A DNA stretch of 30,888 nucleotides from Frankiales bacterium (GCA_043747515.1 JAYTOZ010000358.1:1-30888), one strand, 5' to 3'. Shown: positions 6,204 to 30,888, counted from the first letter of the stretch. Program-made: numbers and translations. Notes: generated by a model from the sequence alone, not told the origin.

Positions 6204-6742
6204 GCCGGTTGGGTCTCACCCCCTCGCAGACCGTCGGCCCCTACCTCTCGCTCGCCCTGCGTCGGCCGGACGGCCAGTACGTCGTACCGGCGGGAACGCC
6301 TGGTGCGTGCTGGATCCGGGGACGCGTGCTCGACGGCCGAGGTGAGGTCGTCACCGACGCACTGGTCGAGACCTGGCAGGCCGACGTCGACGGGATCTAC
6401 TGCCATCCACGCGACGAGCGGTACGCCGGGGCACCGGTCACCCCCGGCTTCCGGGGCTTCGGGCGCTCCGAGACGGTCGCGGGCGGCTGGGCGATCCACA
6501 CCGTGCGGCCGGGGTGGGCCGACGGTGCCCCGCACCTGGCCGTGTCGGTCTTCGCCCGTGGCCTGCTCGACCGACTGGTCACCCGGATCTACCTGCCGGA
6601 CCAGGACAACAGCCAGGATCCGGTGTTGGCCGGGCTCGACCCGGCGCGGGCCGCCACCCTGGTCGCGGCCCCCGCCGAGGACGGCTACCACCTCGACATC
6701 ACACTGCAGGGTGAGCATGAGACCGTCTTCTTCGCTGTCTGA
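6200..6742 (+). CDS. pcaG: Protocatechuate 3,4-dioxygenase alpha subunit
   Basis: TPSQTVGPY, ETWQAD, VSVFARGLL, TRIY and LQGEHETVFF. ATGA overlap with pcaH. Confidence 0.95.
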   Translation: MSRLGLTPSQTVGPYLSLALRRPDGQYVVPAGTPGACWIRGRVLDGRGEVVTDALVETWQADVDGIYCHPRDERYAGAPVTPGFRGFGRSETVAGGWAIHTVRPGWADGAPHLAVSVFARGLLDRLVTRIYLPDQDNSQDPVLAGLDPARAATLVAAPAEDGYHLDITLQGEHETVFFAV

Positions 6743-8069: not shown

Positions 8070-9295
8070 CCGCCGTCGAGGTCCAGCACGTCGAAGCCGG
8101 TCCGTCGGACGCGCCTGTCGTCGTGCTCATCGGCTCGCTCGGCTCGACCCATGCGATGTGGGACCCGCAGGTGCCGGTGCTGAGCCAGCGCTTCCGGGTC
8201 GTCCGCTACGACGCCCGCGGGCACGGCAGATCACCGGTGCCGCCGGGCCCCTACGCACTGGACGACCTGGTCGACGACGTGGTGGCGCTGCTCGACCGGC
8301 TCGGGGTCGCGCGGGCCCACGTCGTGGGGCTCTCGCTCGGCGGCATGACCGCGATGCGGCTCGCGGTCCGCGAGCCGGCTCGGGTGGACCGGCTGGCCCT
8401 GCTGTGCACCTCGGCGCTGCTCGGGCCGCCGAGCGGCTGGACCGAGCGCGCCGCGGCCGTCCGCGCGGGCGGCAGCGGCGCGGTCGCCGACGCCGTCGTC
8501 GAGCGCTGGCTCACCCCGGCGGGCCGGCTCCCGGACCGGGTGGCCTGGCTGCGAGCCATGATCGCCGCGACACCGGCCGAGGGCTATGCCGCCTGCTGCG
8601 AGGCGATCGGGGCGATGGACCTGCGGGCCGACCTGGTGGACATCGCTGCACCGACCCTGGTCATCGCCGGCGCGGACGACCCGTCGACGCCGCCCGAGCA
8701 CCTCGAAGCCATCGTCGCGGCGATCCCCGGCGCGCGGCTGCAGGTCCTCGCCGGGGCCGCCCACCTGGCCAACATCGAGCAGGCAGCCGCTGTCAATGCC
8801 GCCCTGCTGGCCCATCTCGACCCGGCGGGGCGCTCCTCCCACAACACCGGGATGGCGGTGCGCCGGGCCGTGCTGGGCGACGAGCACGTCGACCGCGCCG
8901 TCGCAGCCACGACCGCCCTCACCGAGCCCTTCCAGGACCTCCTCACCCGCTACGCCTGGGGCGACGTCTGGGCCAGGCCGGGACTGTCCCGGCGTACGCG
9001 CAGCCTGGTGACGCTGGCGGTGCTCACCGCCCTCGGCCATGAGCACGAGCTCGCACTGCACGTGCGGGCGGCTGTCACCAACGGCCTGACCGACGAGGAG
9101 ATCTCCGAGGTGCTGCTGCACACCGCCGTCTATGCCGGCGTGCCGGCCGCGAACCGGGCCTTCGCCGTCGCCCAACAGACCCTCGCCGAGCTGCAGCCCC
9201 GACCCGGATCGAGCAAGCGCCACGCAGCTGGTGCTCGTGCTGGATCCGACCGCGACCCGCCCGCGTTTCCAGGGCCCGATCCAGCACGGCAATGA
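8066..9295 (+). CDS. pcaL: Fused 3-oxoadipate enol-lactonase / 4-carboxymuconolactone decarboxylase (PcaD-PcaC)
   Basis: Alpha/beta hydrolase (YDARGHG, GLSLGG, AAHLAN) followed by a CMD domain (YAWGDVW, ELALHVRAA, YAGVPAAN). AAGGAG RBS and GTGA overlap with pcaB. Confidence 0.93.
   Translation: MTAVEVQHVEAGPSDAPVVVLIGSLGSTHAMWDPQVPVLSQRFRVVRYDARGHGRSPVPPGPYALDDLVDDVVALLDRLGVARAHVVGLSLGGMTAMRLAVREPARVDRLALLCTSALLGPPSGWTERAAAVRAGGSGAVADAVVERWLTPAGRLPDRVAWLRAMIAATPAEGYAACCEAIGAMDLRADLVDIAAPTLVIAGADDPSTPPEHLEAIVAAIPGARLQVLAGAAHLANIEQAAAVNAALLAHLDPAGRSSHNTGMAVRRAVLGDEHVDRAVAATTALTEPFQDLLTRYAWGDVWARPGLSRRTRSLVTLAVLTALGHEHELALHVRAAVTNGLTDEEISEVLLHTAVYAGVPAANRAFAVAQQTLAELQPRPGSSKRHAAGARAGSDRDPPAFPGPDPARQ
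9233..9292. repeat. Palindromic dispersed repeat, copy 1 (REP/MITE-like)
   Basis: GCTCGTGCTGGATC-N31-GATCCAGCACG-GCAA; 11-bp perfect inverted arms (9236-9246 and 9278-9288). Homologous to 13554-13614. Confidence 0.75.
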
Positions 9296-10657: not shown

Positions 10658-12012
10658 GCCTGCTCGACGAGCTCGAGACCGCGGTCGGCGTCGACCACGT
10701 TCTGGTCGACGCCGACCTCACCGCCTCCTACGAGACCGACTGGACCGGCCGCTTCTCGGGGCGGGCCCGGTGCGTCGTACGCCCGCGCAGCACCGACCAG
10801 GTCGCGGCGGTCCTGCGCGCCTGCTCGGCACATGGGGCGCCGGTGGTGGTGCAGGGCGGCAACACCGGGCTCGTCGGGGGCGCCGTCCCGGCCGGCGGCG
10901 AGGTCGTCGTGAGCATGTCCCGGCTCAGTGACGTCGGCGAGATCGACCTGGCCGCAGCGCAGGTCACGGTCGGCGCCGGGGTGACCCTCGCCGCGCTGCA
11001 GTCTCACGCGCGCGCGGCCGACCTCGACTTCGGCGTCGACCTGGCGGCGCGCGAGTCGGCCACCGTCGGCGGGCTCGTCGCGACCAACGCCGGCGGCATC
11101 CGGGTGCTGCGCTACGGCTCGATGCGTGCGCAGCTGACCGGGGCCGAGGCGGTGCTGGCGGACGGCTCGGTCGTCAGCCGGCTGGCCGGGCTCGCCAAGG
11201 ACGGCACCGGCTACGACCTCGTCTCGCTGCTCGCCGGCAGCGAGGGCACCCTGGCCGTCGTCACCCAGGTCCGGGTCCGGCTCGTCCCGCGGCCGCGGGC
11301 CCGCTGCGTGGCGCTGCTCGCGATGGCCGGCACCAGCCAGGCCGTGGCGCTGCTGCCGGGGCTGCGCGAACGGCTGCCGTCGCTGTCCGCGGCCGAGTTG
11401 TTCTTCCAGCCCGGCCTTGAGCTCGTCCGCGGCTACGGCGGCCTGCCGGCGCCGTTCGGCGAGCCGCACCCGGCCTATCTGCTGCTCGAGTGCTCCGACC
11501 GGTGCGACCCGACCGAGGCGCTCGTCGAGGCGGTCGGGGAGGCCGACGGCCTGCTCGACGCGACGGTCGCCAGCGACGCCGCCTCGCAGCGCGCGCTGTG
11601 GGCCTACCGCGAGACCCACACCGAGGCGATCAGCGCCGAGGGGGTGCCGGTCAAACTGGACGTCTCGGTGCCGACCGGCCTGCTGCCCGAGCTCGTCGAC
11701 CGGCTGCCCGGGGTGATCGCGGCGGTGTGCCCAGTGGCCCGGCCGATCGTGTTTGGCCACGTCAACGAGGGCAACCTGCACGTCAATGTGCTCGACACCG
11801 GCGAGCTGCACGACGAGGTCACCGATGCGGTGCTGCGGCTCGTCGCCGAGCTGCAGGGCAGCATCAGCAGCGAGCACGGGGTCGGCCGCGCCAAGGTCGC
11901 CTGGCTCGGACTGTCCCGGTCGGCCACCGAGATCGCCGCCATGCAGGCGATCAAGCGGGCGCTCGACCCGGCCGGGATCCTCAGCCCGGGGGTCCTGCTG
12001 CCGACGGTGTGA
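10654..12012 (+). CDS. FAD-binding oxidoreductase, D-2-hydroxyglutarate dehydrogenase-like (VAO/PCMH fold)
   Basis: QGGNTGLVGG, GGLVATNAGG, GSEGTL, WAYRETHTE, KLDVS, GHVNEGNLHVN and SSEHGVG. GTGA overlap with serA. Confidence 0.8.
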   Translation: MSLLDELETAVGVDHVLVDADLTASYETDWTGRFSGRARCVVRPRSTDQVAAVLRACSAHGAPVVVQGGNTGLVGGAVPAGGEVVVSMSRLSDVGEIDLAAAQVTVGAGVTLAALQSHARAADLDFGVDLAARESATVGGLVATNAGGIRVLRYGSMRAQLTGAEAVLADGSVVSRLAGLAKDGTGYDLVSLLAGSEGTLAVVTQVRVRLVPRPRARCVALLAMAGTSQAVALLPGLRERLPSLSAAELFFQPGLELVRGYGGLPAPFGEPHPAYLLLECSDRCDPTEALVEAVGEADGLLDATVASDAASQRALWAYRETHTEAISAEGVPVKLDVSVPTGLLPELVDRLPGVIAAVCPVARPIVFGHVNEGNLHVNVLDTGELHDEVTDAVLRLVAELQGSISSEHGVGRAKVAWLGLSRSATEIAAMQAIKRALDPAGILSPGVLLPTV

Positions 12013-12028
12013 CAGCTCGGTGACGCGG

Positions 12029-12055
12029 GGAACGACCCGGCCGGGCCACCGGTTG
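12029..12055 (+). promoter_or_regulatory. SigH/SigR-type thiol-oxidative-stress ECF promoter of msrA
   Basis: GGAAC (12029-12033)-N18-GTTG (12052-12055) matches the actinobacterial SigR/SigH consensus, and msrA is a known member of that regulon. Confidence 0.7.
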
Positions 12056-12095
12056 CACGTCGTACACATGCAGCCCGATGACAGGAGTCCCCACC

Positions 12096-12752
12096 GTGTG
12101 GTCCTTGACCAAAAAGCTCGACCTTCCCACGGCCGACACGGCGCTGCCCGGCCGCGCCGAGCCGATGGGTGTGCCCGACCGGCATGAGGTCCTCGGCACA
12201 CCGATCACCGGCCCGTTCCCAGCGGGCGCACAGACGGCCTACTTCGCCCTGGGCTGCTTCTGGGGCGCCGAGCGGATCTTCTGGGAGGCGCCCGGCGTCC
12301 TTGGCACCGCGGTCGGCTACCAGGGCGGGATGACCCCCAACCCGACGTACGAACAGACGTGCTCGGGCCGGACCGGTCACACCGAAGCCGTCCAGGTCGT
12401 CTACGACCCGACCAAGACGTCCTACGACGCGCTGCTGAAGCTGTTCTGGGAGAACCACGACCCGACGCAGGGCATGCGGCAGGGCAACGACGTCGGCTCG
12501 CAGTACCGCTCGGCGATCTACGCCTCGACCGACGTGCAGCTCGCCGCGGCCAAGGCCAGCCGTGAGGTTTACGGCAAGGCCCTGGCGGCGTCCGGCCGCA
12601 GCGAGATCTCGACCGAGATCGTCCCGGCCGGGCCGTTCTACTACGCCGAGGCCTACCACCAGCAGTACCTGCACAAGAACCCCGGGGGCTACTGCAACCA
12701 CGGCTTCAACGGCGTCTCCTGCCCGATCGGCACCGGCGTCACCTCGGCGTAG
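12096..12752 (+). CDS. msrA: Peptide-methionine (S)-S-oxide reductase
   Basis: [35 protein letters not shown] and [13 protein letters not shown] before GTG 12096. Confidence 0.97.
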
Positions 12753-12778
12753 CCGGCGGAGCGTGCCACCCTTGCAGG

Positions 12779-13537
12779 GTGCGCCCCCTGACCCGCAACG
12801 CCGTGCTCGCAGCGACGGTCGTCGGGTGGGTCGGGTTGGCGCTCGGCCTGGACACCGGCGCGTCGCTGACCCAGCAGCGGCTGCTCGGGGCCGGCACCTG
12901 GCTGCTGCTGCTTGCCTGCCTGCGCGGTGAGTCCCGCGCCACCCGGATCCAGGTCGCGGTCGTGGTCGCCTATGCCTCGCTGATCGAGTACGTCTTCGCC
13001 GGTTGGCTCGGGGTCTACGTCTACCGGCTGCACAACGTCCCGGCGTTCGTCCCACCTGGGCACGGGCTCGTCTATCTGGCGGCGCTCGCGATCGGCCGCA
13101 GTGGCTGGGCGCACCGCCACCAGCGCGGCCTGCTCGGTGTCACCCTCACCGCCTGCGCGGCCTGGGCGGTCTGGGGCCTTGCGTTGTCCCCGCGACCGGA
13201 CGCCCTCGGGGCGTTCTGGTTCGGCTGCCTGCTCGTGTTCGCCAGGTGGGGACGCAGCCGACTCGTCTACGCCGGGGCGTTCCTGGTCGTGAGCTACCTG
13301 GAGATCGTCGGCACCTCGCTGGGCACCTGGGCCTGGCAGCTGCACGACCCGACCGGCCTGGTCACCATCGGCAACCCGCCGAGCGGGATCGCCGGCGGCT
13401 ACGCCTGGTTCGACGCCGCCGCGCTGGCGCTGACGCCGCGGCTGCTGGCCCGGTGGGACGCCCGTCAGACCGGCTCCGGCGTCAGTCTGCGGACCGGCAC
13501 CACGCCCGACAGCACGTACGACGCGGCTGCGGTCTGA
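12779..13537 (+). CDS. Conserved hypothetical multi-pass membrane protein
   Basis: 252 aa, alternating hydrophobic segments with motif-like loops (YRLHNVPAFVPPGHG, GNPPSGIAGGY). High-GC3 codon usage; CACCCT 6 nt before GTG. Confidence 0.75.
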   Translation: MRPLTRNAVLAATVVGWVGLALGLDTGASLTQQRLLGAGTWLLLLACLRGESRATRIQVAVVVAYASLIEYVFAGWLGVYVYRLHNVPAFVPPGHGLVYLAALAIGRSGWAHRHQRGLLGVTLTACAAWAVWGLALSPRPDALGAFWFGCLLVFARWGRSRLVYAGAFLVVSYLEIVGTSLGTWAWQLHDPTGLVTIGNPPSGIAGGYAWFDAAALALTPRLLARWDARQTGSGVSLRTGTTPDSTYDAAAV

Positions 13538-13553
13538 CCCAGCAGCTCGCCGC

Positions 13554-19962: not shown

Positions 19963-21039
19963 GTGACCATCGAGACCCTGCCCTCGCCGGTGCTTGCGGC
20001 CCGTCGCCTCGCCGACGACCTGCTCCGCCCCCAGGCCGAGCAGGTCGACGACGACGCCGTGCCGCGCTCGCATCTGGACGCCCTCGCCGCCGCCGGCCTG
20101 CTCGGCCTCACCGGACCTCCTGCGTACGGCGGGGCAGGGGTGCCCGCTCCGGTGGCCCGTGAGATCACCGAGTTGCTGGCCGGGGCCGACGCGGCGACCT
20201 GGTTCGTCTCGACCCAGCACGCCATGCCGCTGGGCATGCTGGCCGCCTCAGCCAACCAGGAGCTGCGCGAACGGCTGCTGCGGCCGCTGTGCACCGGCTT
20301 GTTGGCCGGGGTCGCGGTGGCCCACCTGCGCCGACCGGGTCGGCCGGCCGTCACTGCGACCCGGGTCGACGGCGGCTGGCGGTTCGACGGGCACGTCGGC
20401 TGGATGACCTCCTGGGGCATCTGCGACGTCTTCCTGCTCGCCGGGCTGTCCGGCGACGGCCAGGCAGTCTTCGCCCTGCTCCCGGCCGTCGAGGGCGGCG
20501 GCCTGACGGCGAGCCAGCCGATGCGACTCGCAGCGATGCAGGCGACCTCCACGGTGACCCTGGACCTCGCCGGCCTGAGAGCGACCGACGCCGACATCGT
20601 TGCGACGGAGCCTTATGACGGGTGGCTCGCGATCGACCGCGCGAAGACCGCGAACATCACCCCTGCGGTCTTCGGCCTGCAGGCCGACACGGTCCGCCGA
20701 CTCGCCGAGACCGCCCGCGACAGAGGCGATGCCACCGCTGCCGAGCTCGCCAACCGGCTGCGGGACGAGGCCGACGCCCTGCGGGTGCAGGCCTACGCCC
20801 TCATCGACCATGTGCCTGCCGACGAGCAGATCGAGGATCGGCTCGCCTTGCGGGCTGAAGCACTCGAGTTGCTGGTGCGCTCGGCCACCGCGCTCGTCGC
20901 CGCCACCGGCGGCAGCGCCATGGCGGTTGGGTCGGCGCCGCAACGCCGATTGCGCGAGGCCGGCTTCATGCTGGTGCAGGCCCAGACCGGCCCCGTCCGC
21001 GAGGCCACCCTGCAACGGCTGCTGGAGCGGACGGCGTGA
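19963..21039 (+). CDS. Acyl-CoA dehydrogenase superfamily flavoprotein (possibly monooxygenase-like)
   Basis: HLDALAAAGLLGL...YGGAG, GWRFDGHVGWMTS and RRLREAGF. TAAACT 7 nt before GTG 19963. Confidence 0.8.
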   Translation: MTIETLPSPVLAARRLADDLLRPQAEQVDDDAVPRSHLDALAAAGLLGLTGPPAYGGAGVPAPVAREITELLAGADAATWFVSTQHAMPLGMLAASANQELRERLLRPLCTGLLAGVAVAHLRRPGRPAVTATRVDGGWRFDGHVGWMTSWGICDVFLLAGLSGDGQAVFALLPAVEGGGLTASQPMRLAAMQATSTVTLDLAGLRATDADIVATEPYDGWLAIDRAKTANITPAVFGLQADTVRRLAETARDRGDATAAELANRLRDEADALRVQAYALIDHVPADEQIEDRLALRAEALELLVRSATALVAATGGSAMAVGSAPQRRLREAGFMLVQAQTGPVREATLQRLLERTA

Positions 21040-21806
21040 GCTGGCGGCTGACCGACAGCGACTGGAACTCCTGGCCGGATGGCCTGACCGACGCCCAGTT
21101 GTGGGCGCAGACCGCCAATCTCGGGCTCGACGGCATCGAGCTCGGCGTCTACGACGCGTCCGTCGAGCTTGCCCCCGCGCGGCTCGCCGCTCTGCCCGGC
21201 ACCGTGCCGGTGACCGACCTGCTGCTGTCGCTGCCCGCCACCCGCTGGCCGGGCGGGGCGCTGTCCGGCGACATCGACCGCCTCCTGACGCAGGTGCGCG
21301 CCTGCTCCGACGTCTGCCGCGACCTGGGCCTTGACGTCCTCGGTCTGTGGCCGGGCGCCGATCCGGTCGGCGCCGACGTCCTCGACGGGGTCCGGCGGGT
21401 CGTCGACGCAGCTGGCGACATCCGGATCGCGCTGGAGTACAAGCCGGACACCGCGGTAGCCACCTGCGACGATGTGATCGCCCTGTGCGCAGCCGTTCCC
21501 GGGCTCGGGGTGCTGCTCGACACCGGCCACGCCTACGCGAATCGCGAAGACCCGGCGCTGCTCGTCGAGCGGCTCGGCGGGCTGCTGCTGCACTGCCACC
21601 TCGGCGACGCGGCTGCCGGTGGGGGCGACGACGACCTGCCCTGCGGGCGGCTGCACGACTTCGGCACGTTCGTCGCCGCGCTGGATGCGACCGGCTGGTC
21701 CGGCACGGCCTCGTTCGACCTCTACGGCGCGGTCTCGAGCGGCCTGCTGACCGGTGGCCAGGCGGTCCGCGAGAGCCGCGACCACGTCCTTGCCACCCGC
21801 GCGTGA
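21036..21806 (+). CDS. Sugar phosphate isomerase/epimerase (xylose-isomerase-like TIM barrel)
   Basis: DGIELG, IALEYKP, LDTGHA and HCHLGD metal-ligand motifs. GTGA overlap. Confidence 0.85.
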   Translation: MSWRLTDSDWNSWPDGLTDAQLWAQTANLGLDGIELGVYDASVELAPARLAALPGTVPVTDLLLSLPATRWPGGALSGDIDRLLTQVRACSDVCRDLGLDVLGLWPGADPVGADVLDGVRRVVDAAGDIRIALEYKPDTAVATCDDVIALCAAVPGLGVLLDTGHAYANREDPALLVERLGGLLLHCHLGDAAAGGGDDDLPCGRLHDFGTFVAALDATGWSGTASFDLYGAVSSGLLTGGQAVRESRDHVLATRA

Positions 21807-22738
21807 GGGCCGTCGTCGCGCACGGTCCGGGGGATTTCCGGCTTGAGCAGGTCGAGGACCCGGTCGGCGACCTGCTCGTCGACGTCGAGGCCGCCGGAGT
21901 CTGCGCCGCCGACCGGATGCTCTGGACCGGCGACCATCCCTGGGGGACGCTGGCCTGGCCGTTCGTCCCCGGGCACGAGCTGCTCGGCCGCGACCCGGCT
22001 GGCCGACGGGTCACCACCGAGGTCAAGGTGCCGTGCGGGTCCTGCCCAGCCTGCGCGCGCGGCGAGGACCACCTGTGCCTGCACGGACGGCATCTGGGCA
22101 GCGGCTTTTCCGGTGCGTTCGCCGAGCGGGTGGCCCTGCCGGTCGGCGCCCGGGTGCACGACATCCCCGAGGCCCTCACCACCGAGCAGGCGGTGCTCGC
22201 CGAGCCGATGGCCTGCGCCCTGCATGCCGTACGCCGGGCCGGGGTCCGGCCCGGCGACCGGGTCGCCATTGCGGGCCTCGGCGGCCTCGGTGCGCTGGCG
22301 GTGCACGCCGCCCGCGCGCAGGGGGCGGCGCACGTGACGGCGGTCGTCCGGAGCGAGGACAAGGCCCGCCTTGCTCGGGAGTTGGGCTACGACGCCGCGA
22401 CGAAGGAGCCTTCCGGTGCGGCGTACGACACGGTCCTTGACGTGAGCGGTTCGGTTGATGCGGTGGCCGTTCTGCTGCGGGCGGTCCGGCCGGGCGGGCG
22501 GGTCGGTGTCTACGGCGTCTACCGCGAGCCGCTGCCGCTCGACCTCAACGGGCTCGCGGAATTTGGCGAGTTGACCGTCAGCGGTGGACATCTCGCCCCC
22601 GGCTGCTTCCCAGAGGCGATCGCCCTGCTGCACCTGGTCGACGGCGCGCTCGTCGTCACCGGCACCCATCCGCTCGAGCGGCTCACCGACGCGCTCGAGG
22701 CCCCGCAGCCCCGCCTGAAGGAGATCGTGCGCCCGTGA
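21803..22738 (+). CDS. Zinc-dependent (MDR) alcohol/polyol dehydrogenase
   Basis: GVCAAD, PGHE, CGSCPACARGEDHLC, EPMACA and AGLGGLG. Starts at GTG 21803 inside track ORF 21347..22738. Confidence 0.9.
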   Translation: MRAVVAHGPGDFRLEQVEDPVGDLLVDVEAAGVCAADRMLWTGDHPWGTLAWPFVPGHELLGRDPAGRRVTTEVKVPCGSCPACARGEDHLCLHGRHLGSGFSGAFAERVALPVGARVHDIPEALTTEQAVLAEPMACALHAVRRAGVRPGDRVAIAGLGGLGALAVHAARAQGAAHVTAVVRSEDKARLARELGYDAATKEPSGAAYDTVLDVSGSVDAVAVLLRAVRPGGRVGVYGVYREPLPLDLNGLAEFGELTVSGGHLAPGCFPEAIALLHLVDGALVVTGTHPLERLTDALEAPQPRLKEIVRP

Positions 22739-23373
22739 AGGACCTCATCGACGAGCTCATCACCGTCGGCCGCAAGGCGGTGGCGGCAGGGCTGGTGATC
22801 GGCAGCGGGGGCAACCTGTCGGCCCGCCTGCCCGGCGCGGACCAGTGCGTCGTGACGGCGAGCGGCTGCTGGCTCGACGAGCTGACACGGGACGATTTCT
22901 CGGTCGTCGCCATCACTGACGGCGCGGTGCGGGGCGGGCATCCCCGGCCGAGTAGCGAGACGCCGCTGCACCTCGCGACCTACCGGGTGCGAGCCGACGT
23001 CAACGCCGTCGTCCACCTGCACCCGCAGACCTCGGTGCTGCTCGACGCGCTCGGCCACCCGATTCGGCTGCTGACGATCGACCACGCCTACTACGTGCGC
23101 GAGGTGCGCTCGACGCCGTTCATCCAGAGCGGCACGCAGGAGCTCGCCGACGCCGGCGCGGCCGCGGTCGCGGATGGCTGCAACTGCGTCATCCTTGGCC
23201 ACCACGGCTGCTCGGCGCTGGGCGAGACCGTCGAGCTGGCCCACAAGCGGGCGGCGAATCTCGAGGAGGCCGCTCGCGCGACGCTCGTGATGTTGCAGCT
23301 CGGCGACACGACCACGGTCTGCCCGCCGGCCTACCTGGCGACCGTCCGGACCAGGGAGCGCGCCGCGCCGTGA
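22735..23373 (+). CDS. Class II aldolase/adducin family protein
   Basis: GSGGNLS, PSSETPLH, VVHLHP and ILGHHG metal-binding His motifs. Confidence 0.92.
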   Translation: MKDLIDELITVGRKAVAAGLVIGSGGNLSARLPGADQCVVTASGCWLDELTRDDFSVVAITDGAVRGGHPRPSSETPLHLATYRVRADVNAVVHLHPQTSVLLDALGHPIRLLTIDHAYYVREVRSTPFIQSGTQELADAGAAAVADGCNCVILGHHGCSALGETVELAHKRAANLEEAARATLVMLQLGDTTTVCPPAYLATVRTRERAAP

Positions 23374-24776
23374 GCCTGGTGGCCGGGCTCGACCTGGGGG
23401 GCTCGTCGGTCAAGGCCTGGGTCTGCGACGCCTCGGCGCCGCAGCAGGCCCTCGCTTCGCTCACTGTGCCGGCGCCGGTGTTGCGGCCGGCTCCGCACCG
23501 GGTGGAGTTCGTCCCCGGCGAGTGGGAGGCCGTCTGCCGCACCGCCCTGGCCGACGTCGTACGCCGTACCGGCCGGCCCGGCGCCGACTACGTCGGGGTC
23601 ACCGTCGGTTCGCTCCGGCAGGGCTTCGTGCTGTTGGACGGCGCCGGCGAACCGCTGGGCACCGGGGTGCTCAACAGCGACCGCCGGGGAGCCCCCTACG
23701 CCGGGGTGCTTGACGGCCAGCACCGGCTCACCGGGCACTGGCCGGCGCCGGAGCTGACCCTGCCCAAGCTGCTCGCGGTGCAGCACGACGAGCCGGCGCG
23801 GTGGGCGGCGACGGCGCGGGTGCTGTTCGTGCACGACTGGGTGCTGTGGCGGATGACCGGGGTGCAGGTCACCGAGTTGTCCTACGCCTGCGCGGGCGCG
23901 ATGGCCGACGTGGCCGGTCGGCGGTGGGCCACCGACCTGCTGGAGCAGTGCGGTGTCGGCGTCGGGCGACTCGCGCCGCTGGTCGAGGCCGGCAGCCGGG
24001 TCGCTGCGCTGGGCGAGGGCTGGGGCCTGCCGGTCTCGCTGCCCGTGGTCAGCGGGTGCGGCGACACCCAGCTCGCTGCGATGGGCGTCGGGGGCCTGGC
24101 CGACGGGGTCCTGACGGTCGTGGCCGGGTCGAGCACGCCGGTCCAGGTGGCCACCTCGGCGATGGTCGACGACCCGCTCGGCCGCCCGTGGGTGTCGACC
24201 CACGCAGCACAGGATCGCTGGGCAGCGGAGGGCAATGCCGGCTACCCCGGGACGGCACAGGGCTGGTGGGCCGGCCTCGTCCCGCGCGGTCAGGATGAGC
24301 CGGCGACCGGGCCGAGCCACGTCACGGCGGTCACGGCCGCGCCGTACTGGTCGCAGCAGACCTGGGAGCGCAAGCCACCGACGTCACTGCTGGGGCTGCG
24401 GCCCGAGACGACCGCCCGCGACGTGGCCGACGCCTTCGAACAGGCGCACGCCTACGCGGTGCGCGGCAACATCGAGGACCTCGAACGGGCCTTGCGCCGA
24501 GCCGCCTCAGCCGTCGTGGTCACCGGCGGGGCGGCTGCCGACGGCCGGCTGCCGGCCCTGCTCGCCGGGGTGCTCGGCCGAGACGTGCACTGGGCCAGAA
24601 GCGGCGGTGCGGCGCAGGCCGGCACGGTGCTGGTCGCGCGGGCGCTCGGGGCGCAACTGGACATTCCAGCCCTGCCGACGACGGTGTTGCCCGCCGGCGA
24701 CCCGGCGCCCTGGCAGGAGGGTTACGAGCGTTGGACGACGACGACCGAGGCGTTGCGCTCGGCTTTGGCCGGCTGA
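23370..24776 (+). CDS. FGGY-family carbohydrate kinase (LsrK/xylulokinase-like)
   Basis: GLDLGGSSVK, SLRQG, NSDRRG, HDWV, SGCGDTQLA and VTGGAA. Confidence 0.9.
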   Translation: MSLVAGLDLGGSSVKAWVCDASAPQQALASLTVPAPVLRPAPHRVEFVPGEWEAVCRTALADVVRRTGRPGADYVGVTVGSLRQGFVLLDGAGEPLGTGVLNSDRRGAPYAGVLDGQHRLTGHWPAPELTLPKLLAVQHDEPARWAATARVLFVHDWVLWRMTGVQVTELSYACAGAMADVAGRRWATDLLEQCGVGVGRLAPLVEAGSRVAALGEGWGLPVSLPVVSGCGDTQLAAMGVGGLADGVLTVVAGSSTPVQVATSAMVDDPLGRPWVSTHAAQDRWAAEGNAGYPGTAQGWWAGLVPRGQDEPATGPSHVTAVTAAPYWSQQTWERKPPTSLLGLRPETTARDVADAFEQAHAYAVRGNIEDLERALRRAASAVVVTGGAAADGRLPALLAGVLGRDVHWARSGGAAQAGTVLVARALGAQLDIPALPTTVLPAGDPAPWQEGYERWTTTTEALRSALAG

Positions 24777-25702
24777 GCCTTCCTGCCACGCTTGTCGAGG
24801 TACATCCGCCGGTCGGCCAGGCCCCAGGCGGTCTCGACGGCCTGGGACGGGTCCCACCAGGCCGCCCCGACCGACACCTGCAGCTGCTCGTCCCGCAGGG
24901 CCGCCTGCAGGCGGGCTGCGAGCTGTTCGGCGTCCCCGAAGCCGGCTGCCGGGCTGAGCACCCCGAACTCATCGCCGCCGAGGCGGGCCAGCACATCGGT
25001 GCGCCGGACCGCGCCCTGCAACGCGGTCGCCACCTTGGTGAGCAGCAGATCGCCGCTCGCGTGGCCGAGCCGGTCGTTCAAGGCCTTCAGCCCGTCGCAG
25101 TCGAGGCTGGCGAAGGCCAGCCCGCCGCCGTCGCGCTGGCAGCGCTCACGTTCCCGGTCCAGGGCGGTGATCCAGCCGAACCGACTGAGCACGCCGGTGA
25201 GCGGGTCGCGCATCGCCGCCGCTTCGGCCTCGTCGGCGCGCGCCGCCTCGATCCGACTGGCGGTGCTCGCCTCGTGGACGTGGGCCAGCAGGTCGGCGAG
25301 CATCTGGACCAGCGGCAGCACCTCCGCGAGGGACGGCGGCATCGGCTCCGGGTCGAACCCGCAGACGGTCCCGAGCAGCCGGCCGTCGACGGTGATCGGC
25401 GCCCCGACGTACGCCGAGATGGGCAGCTCGGTGCGCAGGGGTGCGGCGCCGAGCCGGGAGTCGTCGTCGAGGTTGGCCACCACCTGCGCGCCGGTGCCGC
25501 GCACCATCCGCCAGCACACGGTGTCGGTCCAGCGCAGCCGGGTGCCGGGTGGCACGCCGTAGCCGCGGTCGGCGACGGCGACGGGGATCCAGTCACCCGC
25601 CTGTTCGTCGATGTCGGCGACCACCCAGGCGTGCATCGGGGACTGGGTCTGCAAGAAGTCGACGACACGCTGGGCCGCGACGAGATAGCCGTCGTGCTGC
25701 AC
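24722..25702 (-). CDS. GAF-domain diguanylate cyclase
   Basis: N-terminal GAF (AYVGAPI..GTVCGFD), DPLTG, DCDGLKALNDRLGHASGD and RLGGDEF, with an RxxD I-site (RRTD). GGAGG before GTG. Confidence 0.92.
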   Translation of the reverse strand: MQHDGYLVAAQRVVDFLQTQSPMHAWVVADIDEQAGDWIPVAVADRGYGVPPGTRLRWTDTVCWRMVRGTGAQVVANLDDDSRLGAAPLRTELPISAYVGAPITVDGRLLGTVCGFDPEPMPPSLAEVLPLVQMLADLLAHVHEASTASRIEAARADEAEAAAMRDPLTGVLSRFGWITALDRERERCQRDGGGLAFASLDCDGLKALNDRLGHASGDLLLTKVATALQGAVRRTDVLARLGGDEFGVLSPAAGFGDAEQLAARLQAALRDEQLQVSVGAAWWDPSQAVETAWGLADRRMYLDKRGRKAQPAKAERNASVVVVQRS

Positions 25703-25812
25703 AGTGCCTCCGCTGGGTCGCGCGCGACGCGGGTCAGGGCAGCCGCGCCTAGTCTGCGGCCCGCCACCGGTCGCGTCACTGGCCCAAAAGGATGGTGCGG
25801 GACAGTGTCTGG

Positions 25813-26757
25813 ATGAGGGCCCTGGTCACCGCGGAGTTCACCGACGACGGCGTGATACGTCTGCGCGACCTCGGATACGAGGTGCGGCAAGCCGGCTGGG
25901 GCGCCACCCGGCAGCCGCTCGACACCTCCGCCCTGGTGGCGGCGGCGAGCGGGTGCACGCTGCTGGTGACCGAGCTCGAGGTCATCGACGCCGAGGTGCT
26001 CGCGGCGCTGCCCTCGGTGCAACTGGTCGCGACTGCTCGCGGCGGCCCGGTCAACGTCGATCTCGCCGCTTGTGCGGCTCGCGACGTGCCGGTCCTGTTC
26101 ACCCCCGGCCGCAATGCCGGGTCGGTCGCGGATTTCACCATCGGCCTGCTGCTCACGCTCTGCCGGGGGATCACCGCAGCTGATCGGCATCTGCGCGAGA
26201 GCGGCTGGCACGTCGGTGACGACCTGCCCTACCTGCACTTTCGCGGGCCGGAGCTTGCCGGCCGGGTGCTCGGCGTCGTCGGCCTGGGCGCGGTCGGCCG
26301 GCTCGTCGCCCAGCGCGCCTCGGCCGGCTTCGGCATGCGGGTCCTGCACCACGACCCGAACGTGGCGGGCTCGCTGCCGCTCCAGGAGCTGGTGGCCGCG
26401 GCCGACGTGCTTTCGCTGCACTGTCCACGCCTGCCGGCGACCCGCGGGCTGGTGGACGCCGGCCTGCTGGCCCGGTTGCGGCCGGCGTCCTACCTCCTGA
26501 ACACCGCCGGCGGGGGCGTCGTCGACGAGGACGCCCTGTGCGACGCCCTCGACGCCGGCCGGCTCGCCGGAGCGGCCCTGGACGTGTTCGCGACCGAACC
26601 GCTACCCAGGGACAGCCGGCTGCTGCGCACTCCCAGGTTGCTGCTGACGCCGCACCTGGCCGGCGCGGCCGACGACGTGGTGACGCACCACACATCGATG
26701 CTCTGCGACGACATCGAACGCTGGCACCGAGGGGAGCCCCTCATGCATCGCGCCTGA
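25813..26757 (+). CDS. D-isomer-specific 2-hydroxyacid dehydrogenase (no ACT domain)
   Basis: ARGGPVNVDL, TPGRNAGSVAD, GVVGLGAVG, SLHCP, LDVFATEP and TPHLAG. Confidence 0.9.
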   Translation: MRALVTAEFTDDGVIRLRDLGYEVRQAGWGATRQPLDTSALVAAASGCTLLVTELEVIDAEVLAALPSVQLVATARGGPVNVDLAACAARDVPVLFTPGRNAGSVADFTIGLLLTLCRGITAADRHLRESGWHVGDDLPYLHFRGPELAGRVLGVVGLGAVGRLVAQRASAGFGMRVLHHDPNVAGSLPLQELVAAADVLSLHCPRLPATRGLVDAGLLARLRPASYLLNTAGGGVVDEDALCDALDAGRLAGAALDVFATEPLPRDSRLLRTPRLLLTPHLAGAADDVVTHHTSMLCDDIERWHRGEPLMHRA

Positions 26758-26777: not shown

Positions 26778-27923
26778 ATGGTTCACGTCGCTGTCCTCGG
26801 TGCCGGCCCGACCGGTCTGGAGGCGGCCCTCGCGGCCGTCCAGCGGGGGTGGGACGTCACGGTCTACGAGCAGGCGCCGCAGGTCGGTGGCCATGTCCGC
26901 GACTGGGGGCACGTGCAGCTGTTCACCCCCTGGTCGATGGGCGTGTCGCCCCGGGCCGTCGAGGCCCTTGGTCTGGTGCCCGGGGCGTCCTGCCCGACCG
27001 GCCATGAGTACGCCGAGCACCTGGACCGAGTGGCTGCGCTGCTGCCGGATGTCCAGCTGTCGACGCGGGTCGACCAGGTCGCCCGGACGGGCCTGCTCAA
27101 GAGCGAGGAGATCGGCAGCGAGGTGCGCGGGGCCACGCCGTTCCGGTTGCTGGTGATCGGGCCGGACGGCACCGAGCGGGTCGAGCATGCCGATGTCGTG
27201 CTGGACTGCTCGGGGACCTACGGCAACCCCAACCCGACCGGTGACGGCGGAATCCCGGCCCTCGGCGAGCGCGCCCTCGGTGACCGCGTCGTACGCCGGA
27301 TCCCCCGCGTCGACGCCGGCTGGGCGGGACGCCGAGTGCTGCTCGTCGGCGCCGGCTACAGCGCGCAGACCGTGGCCCGCGACCTCGTCGGCGTGGGCGC
27401 GCAGCTGACCTGGGCCATCCGCCGGGCAGAGCCGACCTGGGGCGCGGTCGAGGGTGACTCCCTGCCGGACCGCGCCGCGCTCGTCGCGTCGTCCCGTCGG
27501 ATCGCCGAGGGCGGCGACGTCATCAGGGGTGTGGTCGTCGAGGCCCTGCGGCCGGTCGGGGACGACGTGGTCGTGGTGCTCAGGCGGCAGGACAGCTCGA
27601 CGACGGAGGTCGTCGTCGACGTGGTCGTGTCGATGACCGGCGCGGTCGGCGACAGTCGGATCTACCGCCAGCTGCAGGTCCACGAGTGCTATGCGACCGA
27701 GGGTCCGATCGCGCTGGCCGCGACGCTGCTCGGCGCCGAGGGCGGCGACTGCCTGATGCAAACCTCGGCCGGCGTCGACGCGCTGCGCAACCCCGAGCCG
27801 CGGTTCTTCGTGCTCGGCAGCAAGAGCTACGGCCGCAACAACACCTTCCTGCTGCGGGTCGGTTGGGAACAGGTCGCCGAGGTCTTCGCGGCCCTCGACG
27901 AGGAGCTGCTCGCCGCGGTGTGA
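26778..27923 (+). CDS. FAD/NAD(P)-dependent oxidoreductase (flavoprotein monooxygenase-like, possibly arsenic-associated)
   Basis: Two Rossmann motifs (GAGPTG, GAGYSA), plus WGHVQLFTPW, QVHECYATEGP and GSKSYGRNNTFLL. TAGGCT 6 nt before ATG. Confidence 0.85.
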   Translation: MVHVAVLGAGPTGLEAALAAVQRGWDVTVYEQAPQVGGHVRDWGHVQLFTPWSMGVSPRAVEALGLVPGASCPTGHEYAEHLDRVAALLPDVQLSTRVDQVARTGLLKSEEIGSEVRGATPFRLLVIGPDGTERVEHADVVLDCSGTYGNPNPTGDGGIPALGERALGDRVVRRIPRVDAGWAGRRVLLVGAGYSAQTVARDLVGVGAQLTWAIRRAEPTWGAVEGDSLPDRAALVASSRRIAEGGDVIRGVVVEALRPVGDDVVVVLRRQDSSTTEVVVDVVVSMTGAVGDSRIYRQLQVHECYATEGPIALAATLLGAEGGDCLMQTSAGVDALRNPEPRFFVLGSKSYGRNNTFLLRVGWEQVAEVFAALDEELLAAV

Positions 27924-28023
27924 AGCAGCGCGGTCGGGGCAGGCCGTGTGACTGGCGACAGCCTCGGCCGGCATGTGCTCAATCGGCTCCGTCATCACCG
28001 ACCTGGCCGGTCCTACCGTCGAG

Positions 28024-28152
28024 CGTCGCAAGCCGCGCCCGAGGCGGGCCTCACCGTCTTTGGTGCTCGACGAAAAAGCCCGCACCAAAGGCGGCTACGG
28101 CGGGATCCTCGGCGTGGGGCAGGGTTCGGTGCATCCGCCGCGGCTGGTCCAG
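28024..28152 (+). pseudogene. pepA: Frameshifted internal fragment of leucyl aminopeptidase (M17)
   Basis: [12 protein letters not shown] in one frame, a +1 shift at TTTG (28059-28062), then [30 protein letters not shown], which resembles the conserved actinobacterial PepA segment preceding the GKGITFD motif. No start or catalytic motifs. Confidence 0.75.
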
Positions 28153-28176
28153 GCAGGCAACCAGAGGTCTCCTGTT

Positions 28177-28206
28177 CGGCGGGATGGGGGAGGTCTTTCC
28201 CCGCCG
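28177..28206. terminator. Hairpin between convergent transcription units
   Basis: CGGCGGG (28177-28183) and CCCGCCG (28200-28206) form an inverted repeat just past the arsR stop. Confidence 0.35.
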
Positions 28207-28218
28207 TACTCCCTGTCA

Positions 28219-28578
28219 TCAACCGCCGTGCGTATCAATCTCCGCAGATGTGCGGCAGCACGTGTCGTTACCGCCGGGCCGGGCCGAGGCAGGCAGATCC
28301 GCCTCGTCGAGGACGGCATCCAGGGCCGCCCGGGCCGCGGCGAGGCCGGCTGGATCCAGGGCGTAGTGCGTGAAACCGTCCGCGTGCCGCCGGGTGACCA
28401 GGCCGCAGGCGGCGAGCTTGGCCAGGTGGTGGCTGACCAGCGGCTGGGCGAGCCCGGACTGCTCGACCAGCTCGCGCACGCACTGCTCGCTGCGACGCAG
28501 GGCGCGCACGAGCTCGAGCCGGTGCGGCTCGGACAGCGCTCGCAGCACCTCCTGAACGTCCAGGGTGGCAGCGGCCAT
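28219..28578 (-). CDS. arsR: ArsR/SmtB family transcriptional regulator with C-terminal Cys-Cys
   Basis: 119 aa: [32 protein letters not shown] and DTCCRT. TGATG overlap with the methyltransferase; C-terminal part of track ORF 28219..29655. Confidence 0.9.
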
Positions 28579-29738
28579 CAGCAGCAGGGCGCGTCGGTGG
28601 CGCTGGACAGCCCGCGCAGGTCCCGCTGCAGTGGCGCAGCCGGACCCGCTGCCGTCAAGGCCGCCGGCGGCGCGCAGGCGAACATCGGCGCGGTTTCCGG
28701 GTCGACCGGCTCGGCCGGTGACAGCAGCTCGAAGGCCCCGGCGTACGGCGCCTTGGCCAGGATGTCGAAGGTCTTGGCACAGACCGCGGTCGCGACACCG
28801 CGCTCGTAGACGTGGTCGTCGTCGTCGAGCACGGCCTTGAACGGGCCCCGCAGCACGACCGCCTGGCCGTGGTCCATGCACGGGCCGTGTTTGCCCTTGT
28901 AGGCCACGACCGTGACGGAGCGGAACTCGATGCCCTCGACGACCTGCCACGGGGCGCTGTCGCGCTTGTCCAGGGTGACGCCGTAGAAACCAGCTTCCTC
29001 GAAGGCGCGCAGGAAGGCCTCCTGTTCGTACGCGCCGGAGATGCAGCCGCTCCACAGGTCGGCGTCGGCGCGCAGATGGTCGGGCACCTCGACGTCGCTG
29101 ACGATGTCGGAGATGACCGCCCGGCCACCGCGGCGCAGCACCCGGAAGATCTCGCCGAACAGCGCCGGCTTCTGCTCGTGCGCCACCAGGTTGAGCACGC
29201 AGTTGGACACGACCGCGTCGACCGAGTCGTCGGCGACCAGCGGCACCTGGAGCTTCTGCTGCTGTACGAAGGCGTCGTACGCCGTGATGCCGGCGAAGTC
29301 GGTCACCGGGTTGGCCTGGAGCCAGGCCTCGCTGGCCGCGACGTCGAGCCGCATGTCCTGGATCTTGCCCTTGCGGAACTCCACATTGTCGTAGCCGACT
29401 GCAGCAGCGACCTGCGGAGCGGCGCCGCGGGCGAGATCGAGCATCTCGTCGGTCATGTCGATCCCGATCACCCGACCGGTGGCGCCGACGACCTGCGAGG
29501 CGATGAAACAGATCTTGCCGCCGCCGCTGCCGAGGTCGAGGACCGTCTCGCCCTCGAGCAGGTGGGTGCTCGGGTCGCCGCAGCCGTAGTCGCGGTCGAG
29601 CACCTCCTGCGGGATGACGGTGAGCAAGCGCGGGTCGTAGTCGACCGGACAGCACAGCGCCGCCTCGACGGCCTGCGCGCCGGCGCCGTAGCGGTCCACG
29701 ACGGACTGTTCGACGGCAGCGTCGGTGGTCAGGGTCAT
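28578..29738 (-). CDS. arsM: Arsenite methyltransferase (ArsM/AS3MT)-like SAM-dependent methyltransferase with C-terminal extension
   Basis: SAM motifs LDLGSGGG and GIDMTDEML. All four ArsM-type Cys motifs are present (ALCCP, YGCGDP, SNCVLNL, SGCISGA). Extra C-terminal domain and terminal PCC. AGGAG before ATG 29738. Confidence 0.8.
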
Positions 29739-29748
29739 GTCGGGTCTC

Positions 29749-30888
29749 CTAGACGGCGCAGTTGTAGACGAGGGGCAGGGATCCATCGGCGCGACGCAGG
29801 GTCAGGAAGTGCTCGACGGCGAGGCGCTTGCCCTCTGCCAGCGACACCCACTCATCCGGCGAGGGGTGCTTGGCGAGCAGCATGTCCGGGCTTGTGTCGA
29901 CGTCCGCGCCGGCCGGGTGCCAGTGCATCCCGTCGGCGGTGACGGTCAACTCGGGCACCGTGTTGCCGTCGTCGATGACCGCTCCGTCGGTGGAGAAACC
30001 ACGTGCGACCAGCGGGCGTACGGCAAAGTCCTTGCCGGTGATGCCCATGCCGGCCAGCAGCGCTCGCAGCGGCTCGACCTCATGGACGTTGTCCGGGGTT
30101 GAGGTCATCCCGACCCGCACCGGCAACCCGAGGCCCTTGGCGAGCGCCAGGCCGTCCATGGCCTTCTGCCAGGACCCGGCCCCACGGTTGATGTCATGGC
30201 CTGGGGCCGAGGCCGCGTCGATCGACGTCTGCAGGACGAGCCGCTCACACCCCGCCAGCCGCTTCAGCTGCTCGAGCCGCCAGCCCTGGTAGAGCATGCC
30301 GTTGGTGAGCAGGACGACGTCGAGCCGATCCGTCGCGTAGAGCACCATCTCGACGATGTCGGGTTCGAGGAAGGGCTCGCCGCCGGTGACGTAGACCTCG
30401 GTGAAGCCCTCGGCGACCGCCTCGTCGACGAGCGCCCGGAAGCGGTCGAGGCCCACCGACCGTTTGCTGGCCTGTGGGCTCGAGGCCACCGAGCAGTAGG
30501 AGCAGGACAGGTTGCAGTGGAAGTTGGTGTAGAGCCACAGCCGGGGCGGGAACAGCGGTGAGCCGAACAGCGGCACCACCGGCAGCCCGTCGTCGACGGC
30601 CTCCGGCGCGTCGGCCCAGCTGACCTGCTCCTGCTCAAAACCGTCCGGCAGGGCGGAACGGTAGAGCTGGTAGCGACCCTTGGACCGCTCGTAGGGCGGG
30701 ACGACCTCGAGACACGTTGTCCACCAGCCGGTCTCGACGGTCTCCACGAACGCCTCGGGCAGCCCACCGGCGCGCATCGAGGCGGCCTGCGCCGGCCAGT
30801 CGTAGGCCAGCGGCACGAGCTCGGCGCCGACCCGGCCGTCGACGAGATCAACCATGGCGTACCAGACCTCGCGCCGCCCATCGTTGGC
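29749..30888 (-). CDS. Radical SAM protein (Rv1681/MoeX-like) with N-terminal extra domain; 5' end probably outside window
   Basis: LWLYTNFHCNLSCSYC (CxxxCxxC), TGGEPFL, LTNG and VPELTVTADGMHWHP. The frame stays open upstream of ATG 30855 to the window edge (ANDGRREVWYA). Confidence 0.88.
   Translation of the reverse strand, partial: ANDGRREVWYAMVDLVDGRVGAELVPLAYDWPAQAASMRAGGLPEAFVETVETGWWTTCLEVVPPYERSKGRYQLYRSALPDGFEQEQVSWADAPEAVDDGLPVVPLFGSPLFPPRLWLYTNFHCNLSCSYCSVASSPQASKRSVGLDRFRALVDEAVAEGFTEVYVTGGEPFLEPDIVEMVLYATDRLDVVLLTNGMLYQGWRLEQLKRLAGCERLVLQTSIDAASAPGHDINRGAGSWQKAMDGLALAKGLGLPVRVGMTSTPDNVHEVEPLRALLAGMGITGKDFAVRPLVARGFSTDGAVIDDGNTVPELTVTADGMHWHPAGADVDTSPDMLLAKHPSPDEWVSLAEGKRLAVEHFLTLRRADGSLPLVYNCAV

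Follow-up and report, generated by a model that had tools for sequence, protein, structure and literature searches.

A Car1-like domain fused to a radical SAM enzyme points to an uncharacterised arsenic system in actinobacteria

Introduction

To our knowledge, only two radical S-adenosylmethionine (SAM) enzymes that form carbon–arsenic (C–As) bonds are known, namely ArsS for arsenosugars and ArsL for arsinothricin. Here we analyse an entire contig of a Frankiales bacterium (GCA_043747515.1, JAYTOZ010000358.1; 30,888 nt, hereafter the window, along which all positions are counted), whose right end carries minus-strand genes for a radical SAM protein, an ArsM-like methyltransferase and an ArsR repressor. 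These genes belong to an uncharacterised actinobacterial arsenic system that most likely makes carbon–arsenic compounds by an undescribed route, and sequence comparison points to a third C–As-forming radical SAM lineage of different ancestry. The original prediction for this DNA had proposed such an arsenic-linked trio, a proposal supported by homologues of the protein's N-terminal domain in ars operons and by the arsenosugar-cassette partners of the wider family. Our literature searches found no paper on the fusion protein described below or on its cassette, in keeping with the earlier claim that the system was undescribed.

The ArsS pathway combines ArsS, a TIGR04167 radical SAM enzyme, with ArsM in a cassette that includes TIGR04282 and TIGR04283 genes (Cheng et al. 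2021, Angew Chem, as cited in a 2025 review, PMC12159101); the same review states that, bisenarsan apart, actinomycetes had long been known only as producers of methylated arsenicals. The arsinothricin pathway relies on ArsL and ArsM, as encoded by arsQML of Burkholderia gladioli (bioRxiv 10.1101/2024.02.01.577332). A further point of reference is Car1 of Rufibacter tibetensis, an arsenate reductase with a metallophosphoesterase fold (Shen et al. 2024, Mol Microbiol 122:201, as cited in PMC12124457).

The Frankiales locus resembles the ArsS pathway in that a radical SAM enzyme is encoded together with ArsM, and relatives of the radical SAM protein adjoin TIGR04283 and TIGR04282 genes scoring above cut-off as well as an MTAP-like phosphorylase. 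It differs in the Car1-like domain fused to the radical SAM core, in a single conserved C-terminal cysteine (Cys562, motif NCA) and, in the window's variant, in a kinase/aldolase/dehydrogenase block that stands in place of glycosyltransferases. The C terminus of ArsS is rich in cysteine or selenocysteine. The ArsL pathway is likewise built on adjacent radical SAM and ArsM genes, whereas the partners of the window's system indicate a ribose-bearing product.

Results

The window holds the 3′ part of a metallophosphoesterase–radical SAM fusion gene

The host assembly is 82% complete (2.6 Mb, 510 contigs, 72% GC). The genes of main concern are as follows.

29749..30888, minus strand: radical SAM/metallophosphoesterase fusion, 3′ part (1,140 nt, C-terminal 379 of 564 codons; stop codon at 29749–29751)
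28578..29738, minus strand: ArsM-like SAM-dependent methyltransferase (386 amino acids, aa)
28219..28578, minus strand: ArsR/SmtB-family repressor (119 aa)
26778..27923, plus strand: two-Rossmann flavoprotein with a YpdA/TrxR-type fold (381 aa; Pyr_redox_2 match)

The radical SAM gene had originally been read as a 368-aa gene starting at an ATG at 30855. This reading is not upheld, as the frame runs open to the end of the contig at base 30888, and the methionine at 30855 is internal and non-conserved, being replaced by Leu, Ile or Val in homologues (alignment A1). A 92-kb metagenome contig (L003), which is 99.4% identical to the window over 11.1 kb and was used as a stand-in for the flanking DNA beyond the contig end, encodes a 564-aa protein (P0005) with PF12850 and PF04055 domains that is 100% identical to the part encoded in the window. 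Among the best 120 homologues listed, most are about 560 aa long with PF12850 (Metallophos_2) preceding PF04055, and the few shorter ones lie mostly on short contigs. Because the frame is open to the contig end and the homologues are about 564 aa long, the window must hold only the C-terminal 379 codons. These span the end of the metallophosphoesterase domain, the linker WWTTCLE, the radical SAM domain and a C-terminal NCAV.

On L003 the operon order is DUF998 membrane protein, PNP_UDP_1 nucleoside phosphorylase (236 aa), fusion (564 aa), ArsM and ArsR, and the phosphorylase gene thus sits just past the window's contig end. Within the window, the fusion's TAG stop, overlapped by a GGAG, is followed by 10 nt (not the 11-bp gap noted originally) and the ATG of the ArsM-like gene, whose own stop overlaps the ArsR start as TGATG. 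This overlap, as well as the convergent arrangement of the flavoprotein gene and the trio, had been described correctly. Scans of the convergent gap (27924–28218) for consensus promoters and terminators found nothing. The claim that arsB, acr3 and arsC are missing also held, in that none was recognised among the annotated window genes (about 5415–7800 and 12000–13540 lay outside the scan), and ACR3 was not found in the 82%-complete host genome. As part of the overall explanation that we favour, at somewhat less than an even chance, the window's minus-strand genes would be the distal part of an arsenic-dedicated operon comprising the phosphorylase, fusion, ArsM-like and ArsR genes.

The N-terminal domain resembles metallophosphoesterases of ars operons

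Residues 1–235 of the fusion were used as a tblastn query against plasmids, and 43 records matched. In each of the three records opened, the match was a standalone metallophosphoesterase (MPE) within an ars operon, with E values down to 2e-37. The operons read ArsR-MPE-ArsM in Paraclostridium (E 2e-37, about 33% identity), ArsR-DUF6428-MPE-ACR3 in Pontibacter and ArsM-ArsR-MPE-ArsC-ArsC-MIP in Rubrobacter. PMC12124457 reports that Orf1 of the Paraclostridium ars operon is about 40% identical to Car1, and that its Cys74 and Cys76 are essential for reductase activity. An alignment of the N-terminal domain with the standalone MPEs shows an invariant GNYD and an invariant Cys-Gly-Cys, the latter formed by Cys75/Cys77 in the fusion and Cys74/Cys76 in the Paraclostridium protein. 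The fusion departs from the standalone proteins in motif I, where GGxYSN replaces SDxHSN with loss of the Asp and His, and in a GHxH motif that lacks its second His. Note that the likeness to Car1 was drawn through Paraclostridium and Hymenobacteraceae relatives rather than through the Car1 sequence itself.

We also considered that the domain might be a true phosphoesterase acting on a ribose-1-phosphate product. This reading was set aside in view of the ars-operon homologues, the retained Cys-Gly-Cys and the lost motif I metal ligands. From the homology to the Car1 group, together with the kept thiols and the missing phosphoesterase ligands, we infer that the domain is an arsenic-reducing or arsenic-holding module that reduces As(V) or holds As(III). 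A fused, thiol-bearing domain of this kind could deliver arsenic straight to the catalytic site of the radical SAM domain.

The radical SAM core is nearest to, but lies outside, the Rv1681 family

The core carries the cluster motif CNLSCSYC, an instance of the CxxxCxxC signature recognised originally, and matches PF04055 at 73.2 bits (cut-off 29.5). Its best NCBIfam model is that of the Rv1681 family ("MoeX"; NF049973, 261 bits, E 9e-78), although the score falls below the cut-off of 380 and the match spans only profile positions 72–287 of 326. The ArsS model TIGR04167 gave 38–39 bits against a cut-off of 300, and MoaA and HpnH gave 56 and 40 bits, respectively. Of the 56 NCBIfam matches, the 25 best include no ArsL-named model, and any ArsL match would fall below about 38 bits. 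The earlier statement that the enzyme resembles neither ArsS nor ArsL therefore stands for ArsS, and for ArsL it holds as far as those 25 matches reach.

The predicted Rv1681-like motifs are genuine, since RLWLYTNFxCNLxCxYC, VPExT..G..WHPxGA and a near-terminal NCA are common to the fusion and to bona fide family members. The core is 36–39% identical to such members in alignment, and 59 columns of alignment A4 are invariant, among them RLW.Y.NF.CNL.C.YC, PE..T..G..WHP.GA and the C-terminal Cys. Standalone proteins that are 42–44% identical over the matched stretch were obtained by searching 1.8 billion representatives; four standalone homologues exceed the Rv1681 cut-off, at 392–457 bits. In the tree the fusion proteins form a monophyletic, long-branched clade that stands apart from the bona fide Rv1681-family proteins used as outgroup (100/100), and where that family has an N-terminal segment of its own they bear the Car1-like domain. 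The shared motifs, the score below cut-off and the separate clade indicate that the resemblance to Rv1681 is real but that membership fails. Nor is the core an ArsS or a MoaA, and the original assignment was right about the nearest family and its motifs.

It had also been suggested that the locus would give an arsenic lead for the Rv1681 family. This is unsupported so far because the contigs of three bona fide members (L106, L108 and L110) showed no arsenic genes. Where contigs were long enough (two of the three), the neighbours are an acyl-CoA dehydrogenase (ACAD) and a PF12974 (PhnD-like) protein. At L108:5042-8011 the PF12974 gene overlaps the radical SAM start by 7 nt, an arrangement that we take to match the order fadE16-Rv1680-Rv1681. 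The similarity of these neighbours to proteins of the fusion loci is at the superfamily level only: for the ACAD-fold protein of the window the identity is 30% over 155 aa, and for the PhnD-like protein of a relative locus (L027) it is 25% over 87 aa. No protein above the Rv1681 cut-off is encoded in a sample of 200 genomes from the phylum; the tally of weak matches, 11 of 201, includes one unpublished genome (G125), on which nothing else reported here depends.

The methyltransferase and the repressor carry arsenic-type cysteines

The ArsM-like protein has a SAM-binding fold (Methyltransf_31, 97 bits). When it was compared with CmArsM structures, Cys53 and the cysteines of VSNC and SGC corresponded to Cys72, Cys174 and Cys224 of CmArsM, and Cys29/Cys30 fell in the region of CmArsM Cys44, 23–24 residues before the YGCG cysteine. 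All four ArsM cysteine motifs reported earlier can thus be placed, three of them by alignment. The protein ends with Cys-Cys. It scores highest on NF040538, the model for arsinothricin-type ArsM, with 330 bits (cut-off 500) over profile positions 25–352 of 356; the arsenite methyltransferase model NF008823 (200 versus 263 bits) and NF038099 (120 versus 400 bits) are also below cut-off. A methyltransferase of the window's type (P0002) was found in none of the 200 sampled genomes, yet seven of the loci retrieved have one beside the fusion (L006, L008, L009, L012, L014, L030 and L041).

The repressor is a winged-helix HTH_5 protein that matches NF033788 at 71 bits (cut-off 55) and PF01022 at 53.9 bits (cut-off 22). 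It has single cysteines at positions 33 and 58 and, as the reported Cys-Cys tail, a vicinal Cys106-Cys107 pair near the C terminus. We take this pair to resemble the two-cysteine SpArsR type, which is selective for methylarsenite.

The nearly full-length match to the arsinothricin-type model raises an alternative in which the fusion transfers a 3-amino-3-carboxypropyl or other SAM fragment to As(III), ArsM yields an arsinothricin-like amino acid and the phosphorylase clears 5′-methylthioadenosine (MTA). The translational coupling of the radical SAM and ArsM genes and the presence of MTAP-like phosphorylases among relatives' partners would suit such a route. However, the methyltransferase fails its cut-off, an ArsL model is absent from the 25 best matches noted above, no ArsQ-type permease is present, and the conserved TIGR04282/TIGR04283 or kinase/aldolase partners require a sugar product. 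We consider this route to have only a slim chance of being correct.

The fusion is widespread and occurs in two types of cassette

In a scan of one genome per species, the fusion was found in at least 561 species genomes. The carriers are mostly Actinomycetota, including cultured Streptomyces, Modestobacter and Conexibacter, with a few Dormibacterota, and come mostly from soil and freshwater. Cultured carriers include Modestobacter sp. DSM 44400, Streptomyces alboflavus NRRL B-2373 and Conexibacter sp. DBS9H8. The open reading frames of 80 loci were clustered and the recurrent clusters annotated, and partners were counted over the 55 loci of at least 14 kb. Two types were defined by the TIGR04283 gene and a second radical SAM gene, and the exclusivity of the other partners is an observation. 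Type A comprises 44 large loci and type B comprises 11, among which the counts are non-independent because the loci are related. The window's locus is of type B.

TIGR04283 "arsenosugar" family 2 glycosyltransferase (GT2; 236 bits, cut-off 182): type A 43/44, type B 0/11
Second radical SAM protein, 481 aa, no curated model: type A 40/44, type B 0/11
Flavoprotein: type A 32/44, type B 7/11
MerA-like disulfide reductase: type A 29/44, type B 0/11
TIGR04282 (185 bits, cut-off 134): type A 22/44, type B 0/11
MTAP-like phosphorylase: type A 19/44, type B 0/11
ArsM-like gene: type A 9/44, type B 4/11
P0125-type phosphorylase: type A 0/44, type B 8/11
PhnD/PhnE transporter: type A 0/44, type B 7/11
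Kinase/aldolase block: type A 0/44, type B 6/11
Aldehyde dehydrogenase: type A 1/44, type B 4/11

No type-specific partner is common to both types, and at least one of ArsM, TIGR04283 and TIGR04282 is present in 47 of the 55 loci. In the tree type A is basal, and the type B loci form a grade made up of four sub-lineages, with one type-A clade nested among them. The second radical SAM protein is about 481 aa long, with the motif CDLACTPC, a PF04055 match of 26 bits and no NCBIfam match (for example L037:3956-5398 on the minus strand, and 48 other loci). A search of the window's 82%-complete assembly turned up neither this protein nor the phosphorylase nor either of the glycosyltransferases.

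Canonical ArsS was not found in five carrier genomes, and in four of these the best match to the ArsS model was the fusion gene itself, which fits the fusion as a functional replacement for ArsS. A Conexibacter genome (sp. DBS9H8, G003) has two ArsS-model matches, at C1:1272294 and C1:3365139, each within a 573-aa open frame; one is the fusion of locus L062, and the other may be a second copy of the fusion. If the fusion does replace ArsS, this would explain how an "arsenosugar" glycosyltransferase cassette works in genomes that lack the canonical enzyme.

The seven type B loci with a PhnD/PhnE importer suggest another use of the cassette. Here variant B would take up an organoarsenical (an arsenosugar or arseno-nucleoside) or arsenate, and the radical SAM enzyme would cleave or rearrange it, with no formation of a C–As bond. 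The phosphorylase, kinase, aldolase and dehydrogenases are catabolic-type partners, and control by ArsR is also seen with resistance operons. Nevertheless, the window's own locus, as seen on L003, has no Phn genes, ArsM and the arsenate-reductase-like domain indicate an input of inorganic arsenic, and the glycosyltransferases and MFS exporter of variant A, the basal one, suggest biosynthesis. We regard a catabolic or protective role as distinctly unlikely.

The relatives' gene content also bears on the identity of the substrate. SelL-related redox proteins and the MerA-like disulfide reductase, like the PhnD/E components, would be compatible with selenium, antimony, sulfur or phosphorus, that is, with a different metalloid or phosphonate-type chemistry. 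ArsM enzymes can methylate further metalloids, and many ligands are sensed across the ArsR family. A substrate other than arsenic is nevertheless highly improbable in our estimation, given the agreement of three independent markers, namely that the standalone homologues of the N-terminal domain lie in ars operons beside ACR3, ArsC and ArsM, that the methyltransferase has all four ArsM cysteines and that the family is associated with an ArsS-type cassette.

The flavoprotein is a conserved partner

In 48 of the 80 loci, tblastn placed a homologue of the flavoprotein close to the fusion, and it is a partner in both cassette types; its presence beside the trio is not incidental. In an AlphaFold2 (AF2) model with a pLDDT of 83.7, the best fold match was bacillithiol disulfide reductase (YpdA, 7a76; TMq 0.65–0.67, probability 1.00), followed by TrxR-type ferredoxin reductases and small flavin monooxygenases. 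The family model TIGR04018 gives a score of just 29 bits (cut-off 340), and protein atlas names for this protein are limited to the generic "FAD/NAD(P)-binding". Two cysteines, Cys304 (in HECYAT) and Cys325 (in GDCL), are invariant in alignment A3, and both fall within residues 300–325, the sole low-confidence, flexible segment of an otherwise confident model. Judged from this model, the segment may be a mobile loop with a redox or arsenic-binding role.

A sugar-processing block accompanies the fusion in type B loci

The phosphorylase upstream of the fusion and a sugar-phosphate-processing block elsewhere in the window belong to the same picture. The block forms a plus-strand run at 19963–26757, in which each gene is a possible member of the system.

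19963..21039, plus strand: acyl-CoA-dehydrogenase-fold protein (weak SfnB-like TIGR04022 match, 52 bits)
21036..21806, plus strand: AP_endonuc_2/xylose-isomerase-like TIM barrel, candidate sugar isomerase (PF01261 on the identical L003 gene)
21803..22738, plus strand: Zn-dependent alcohol dehydrogenase family
22735..23373, plus strand: class II aldolase (FucA/ribulose-1-P aldolase/MtnB-like)
23370..24776, plus strand: FGGY-family sugar kinase (xylulokinase-like; TIGR01312 144 bits, below cut-off)
25792..26757, plus strand: D-2-hydroxyacid dehydrogenase (PF02826/PF00389; possible member by conserved linkage)

Consecutive genes among the first five overlap by 4 nt. The ACAD-fold gene, which opens the run, is fusion-linked in L006, L009 and L012. 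The TIM-barrel protein, which has no NCBIfam model match, is fusion-linked in seven loci, and the aldolase in six; the aldolase scores are all below cut-off (NF006208 103, NF040649 96 and TIGR03328 64 bits). The FGGY kinase is fusion-linked in seven variant B loci with differing gene orders. The D-2-hydroxyacid dehydrogenase gene lies 20 nt upstream of the flavoprotein gene and is fusion-linked in L007, L012, L014, L025 and L041. Between it and the kinase, a GAF-GGDEF gene on the minus strand (24722–25702) interrupts the run, its 3′ end overlapping that of the kinase gene by about 55 nt.

In L003, an aldehyde dehydrogenase of the aminobutyraldehyde/betaine-aldehyde type (617.6 bits, cut-off 615) is encoded three genes upstream of the fusion; several other B loci have it immediately upstream. 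An acyl-CoA ligase accompanies it upstream of the operon in L003 (5731–8711). In L006, L007 and L009 the fusion is likewise preceded by both genes, and in L011, L020, L025 and L029 the dehydrogenase recurs without the ligase. The phosphorylase of L003 (P0125) is divergent, with weak matches to uridine and DeoD phosphorylases, HpnG and futalosine hydrolase that are far below cut-offs. In MqnE/MqnB and HpnH/HpnG, an adenosyl-transferring radical SAM enzyme has a nucleosidase or phosphorylase partner, and the present combination of a radical SAM enzyme with a PNP_UDP_1-family protein is similar. Phosphorylase, isomerase and class II aldolase reportedly also make up the dihydroxyacetone phosphate (DHAP) shunt for SAM by-products, and in the window's variant the phosphorylase is joined by an isomerase-like protein, a class II aldolase and a kinase. 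The similarity to all these systems is at the superfamily level only.

This parallel suggests that the core of the system might be limited to the fusion, flavoprotein, ArsM and ArsR, with the phosphorylase and block engaged in by-product salvage resembling the DHAP shunt or forming an unrelated sugar operon kept by synteny. In its favour, the B loci come from related actinobacteria, and the GGDEF gene breaks the window's run. However, the kinase/aldolase/isomerase/dehydrogenase block adjoins the fusion in all four B sub-lineages, in at least one locus each, and has stayed there despite rearrangement of gene order. Moreover, the phosphorylases fall well short of the MTAP, DeoD and Udp cut-offs and are divergent paralogues specific to these clusters, and the FGGY kinase and AP_endonuc_2 TIM barrel are from families other than those of MtnK and MtnA. 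Salvage or chance synteny is therefore unlikely in our judgement, although it is the strongest of the competitors to a role in processing an arsenical sugar.

Discussion

A route through an arsenic-adenosylated intermediate

Our tentative preference, held at a little below even chances, is that the fusion is an ArsS-like arsenic-adenosylating enzyme of different ancestry, whose product then undergoes base removal and sugar processing. The Cys-Gly-Cys thiols of the N-terminal domain would reduce As(V) or merely hold As(III), as their homology suggests. The radical SAM domain would then cleave SAM and form a C–As bond on the bound arsenic, a chemistry of the ArsS type carried out by a non-orthologous enzyme. 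A 5′-deoxyadenosyl radical is the likeliest agent, since a nucleoside phosphorylase is retained in each cassette type along with enzymes requiring a ribose product. The ArsM-like enzyme would methylate the arsenic before or after this step, and the phosphorylase would strip the adenine to leave 5-arseno-ribose or its 1-phosphate. The flavoprotein may pass reducing power derived from NAD(P)H to the Cys-Gly-Cys, to pentavalent intermediates or to the Fe-S cluster, and a trivalent arsenical bound by the vicinal cysteines of ArsR would derepress the operon.

The two types would diverge in what follows. Judging from the conserved neighbours, the CofC-like TIGR04282 protein and the TIGR04283 GT2 of type A would build an arsenoriboside. 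In the window's variant, the TIM-barrel isomerase, FGGY kinase and class II aldolase could instead convert the sugar to DHAP and a two-carbon (C2) arsenical, on which dehydrogenases then act. This variant might even constitute a full route from inorganic arsenic to C2 organoarsenicals through arsenic adenosylation, adenine removal, isomerisation, phosphorylation and aldolase cleavage. The aldolase would then yield DHAP and arseno-acetaldehyde, and the alcohol dehydrogenase or the aminobutyraldehyde/betaine-aldehyde-type aldehyde dehydrogenase would convert the aldehyde. With methylation by ArsM this could give dimethylarsinoyl-ethanol or -acetate and perhaps also arsenocholine or arsenobetaine, compounds for which we know of no identified biosynthetic genes. 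We rate this complete scheme as improbable. If the third C–As-forming lineage is confirmed, the kinase/aldolase variant would be a testable gene set for the origin of arsenobetaine-type C2 arsenicals, a long-open question, and the arsenic cycle would gain a large source of organoarsenicals that has gone unrecognised.

Several points weigh against an adenosylating role for the fusion. Every step of the pathway is deduced from sequence and none from biochemistry. The radical SAM core is specifically like neither ArsS nor HpnH, we know of no reaction for its nearest family, Rv1681, and the second, unrelated radical SAM protein of most relatives could be the true C–As-forming or adenosylating enzyme. 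The methyltransferase, being nearest to the arsinothricin-type model, fits an ArsL-like route equally well. The PhnD/PhnE-type importer, frequent in variant B loci, fits uptake and breakdown better than synthesis, and the phosphorylase and sugar block could just salvage 5′-deoxyadenosine or MTA or be retained by synteny alone. The names of TIGR04282 and TIGR04283 derive from gene neighbourhood rather than from assays, and the window's genome has neither above cut-off; it has a DUF2064/TIGR04282-like gene just short of the cut-off (122 versus 134 bits) that shares a contig with a GT2 gene outside the arsenic locus (G000:C318:280-2299).

Other genes of the window

Two genes distant from the arsenic locus were also noted. 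A bacteriorhodopsin-like gene on the minus strand at 496–1512 (PF01036, 127 bits) probably encodes an actinorhodopsin-type light-driven pump. A single open reading frame on the plus strand at 7817–9295 combines alpha/beta-hydrolase and carboxymuconolactone decarboxylase domains, which is the architecture of the PcaD-PcaC fusions of the beta-ketoadipate pathway.

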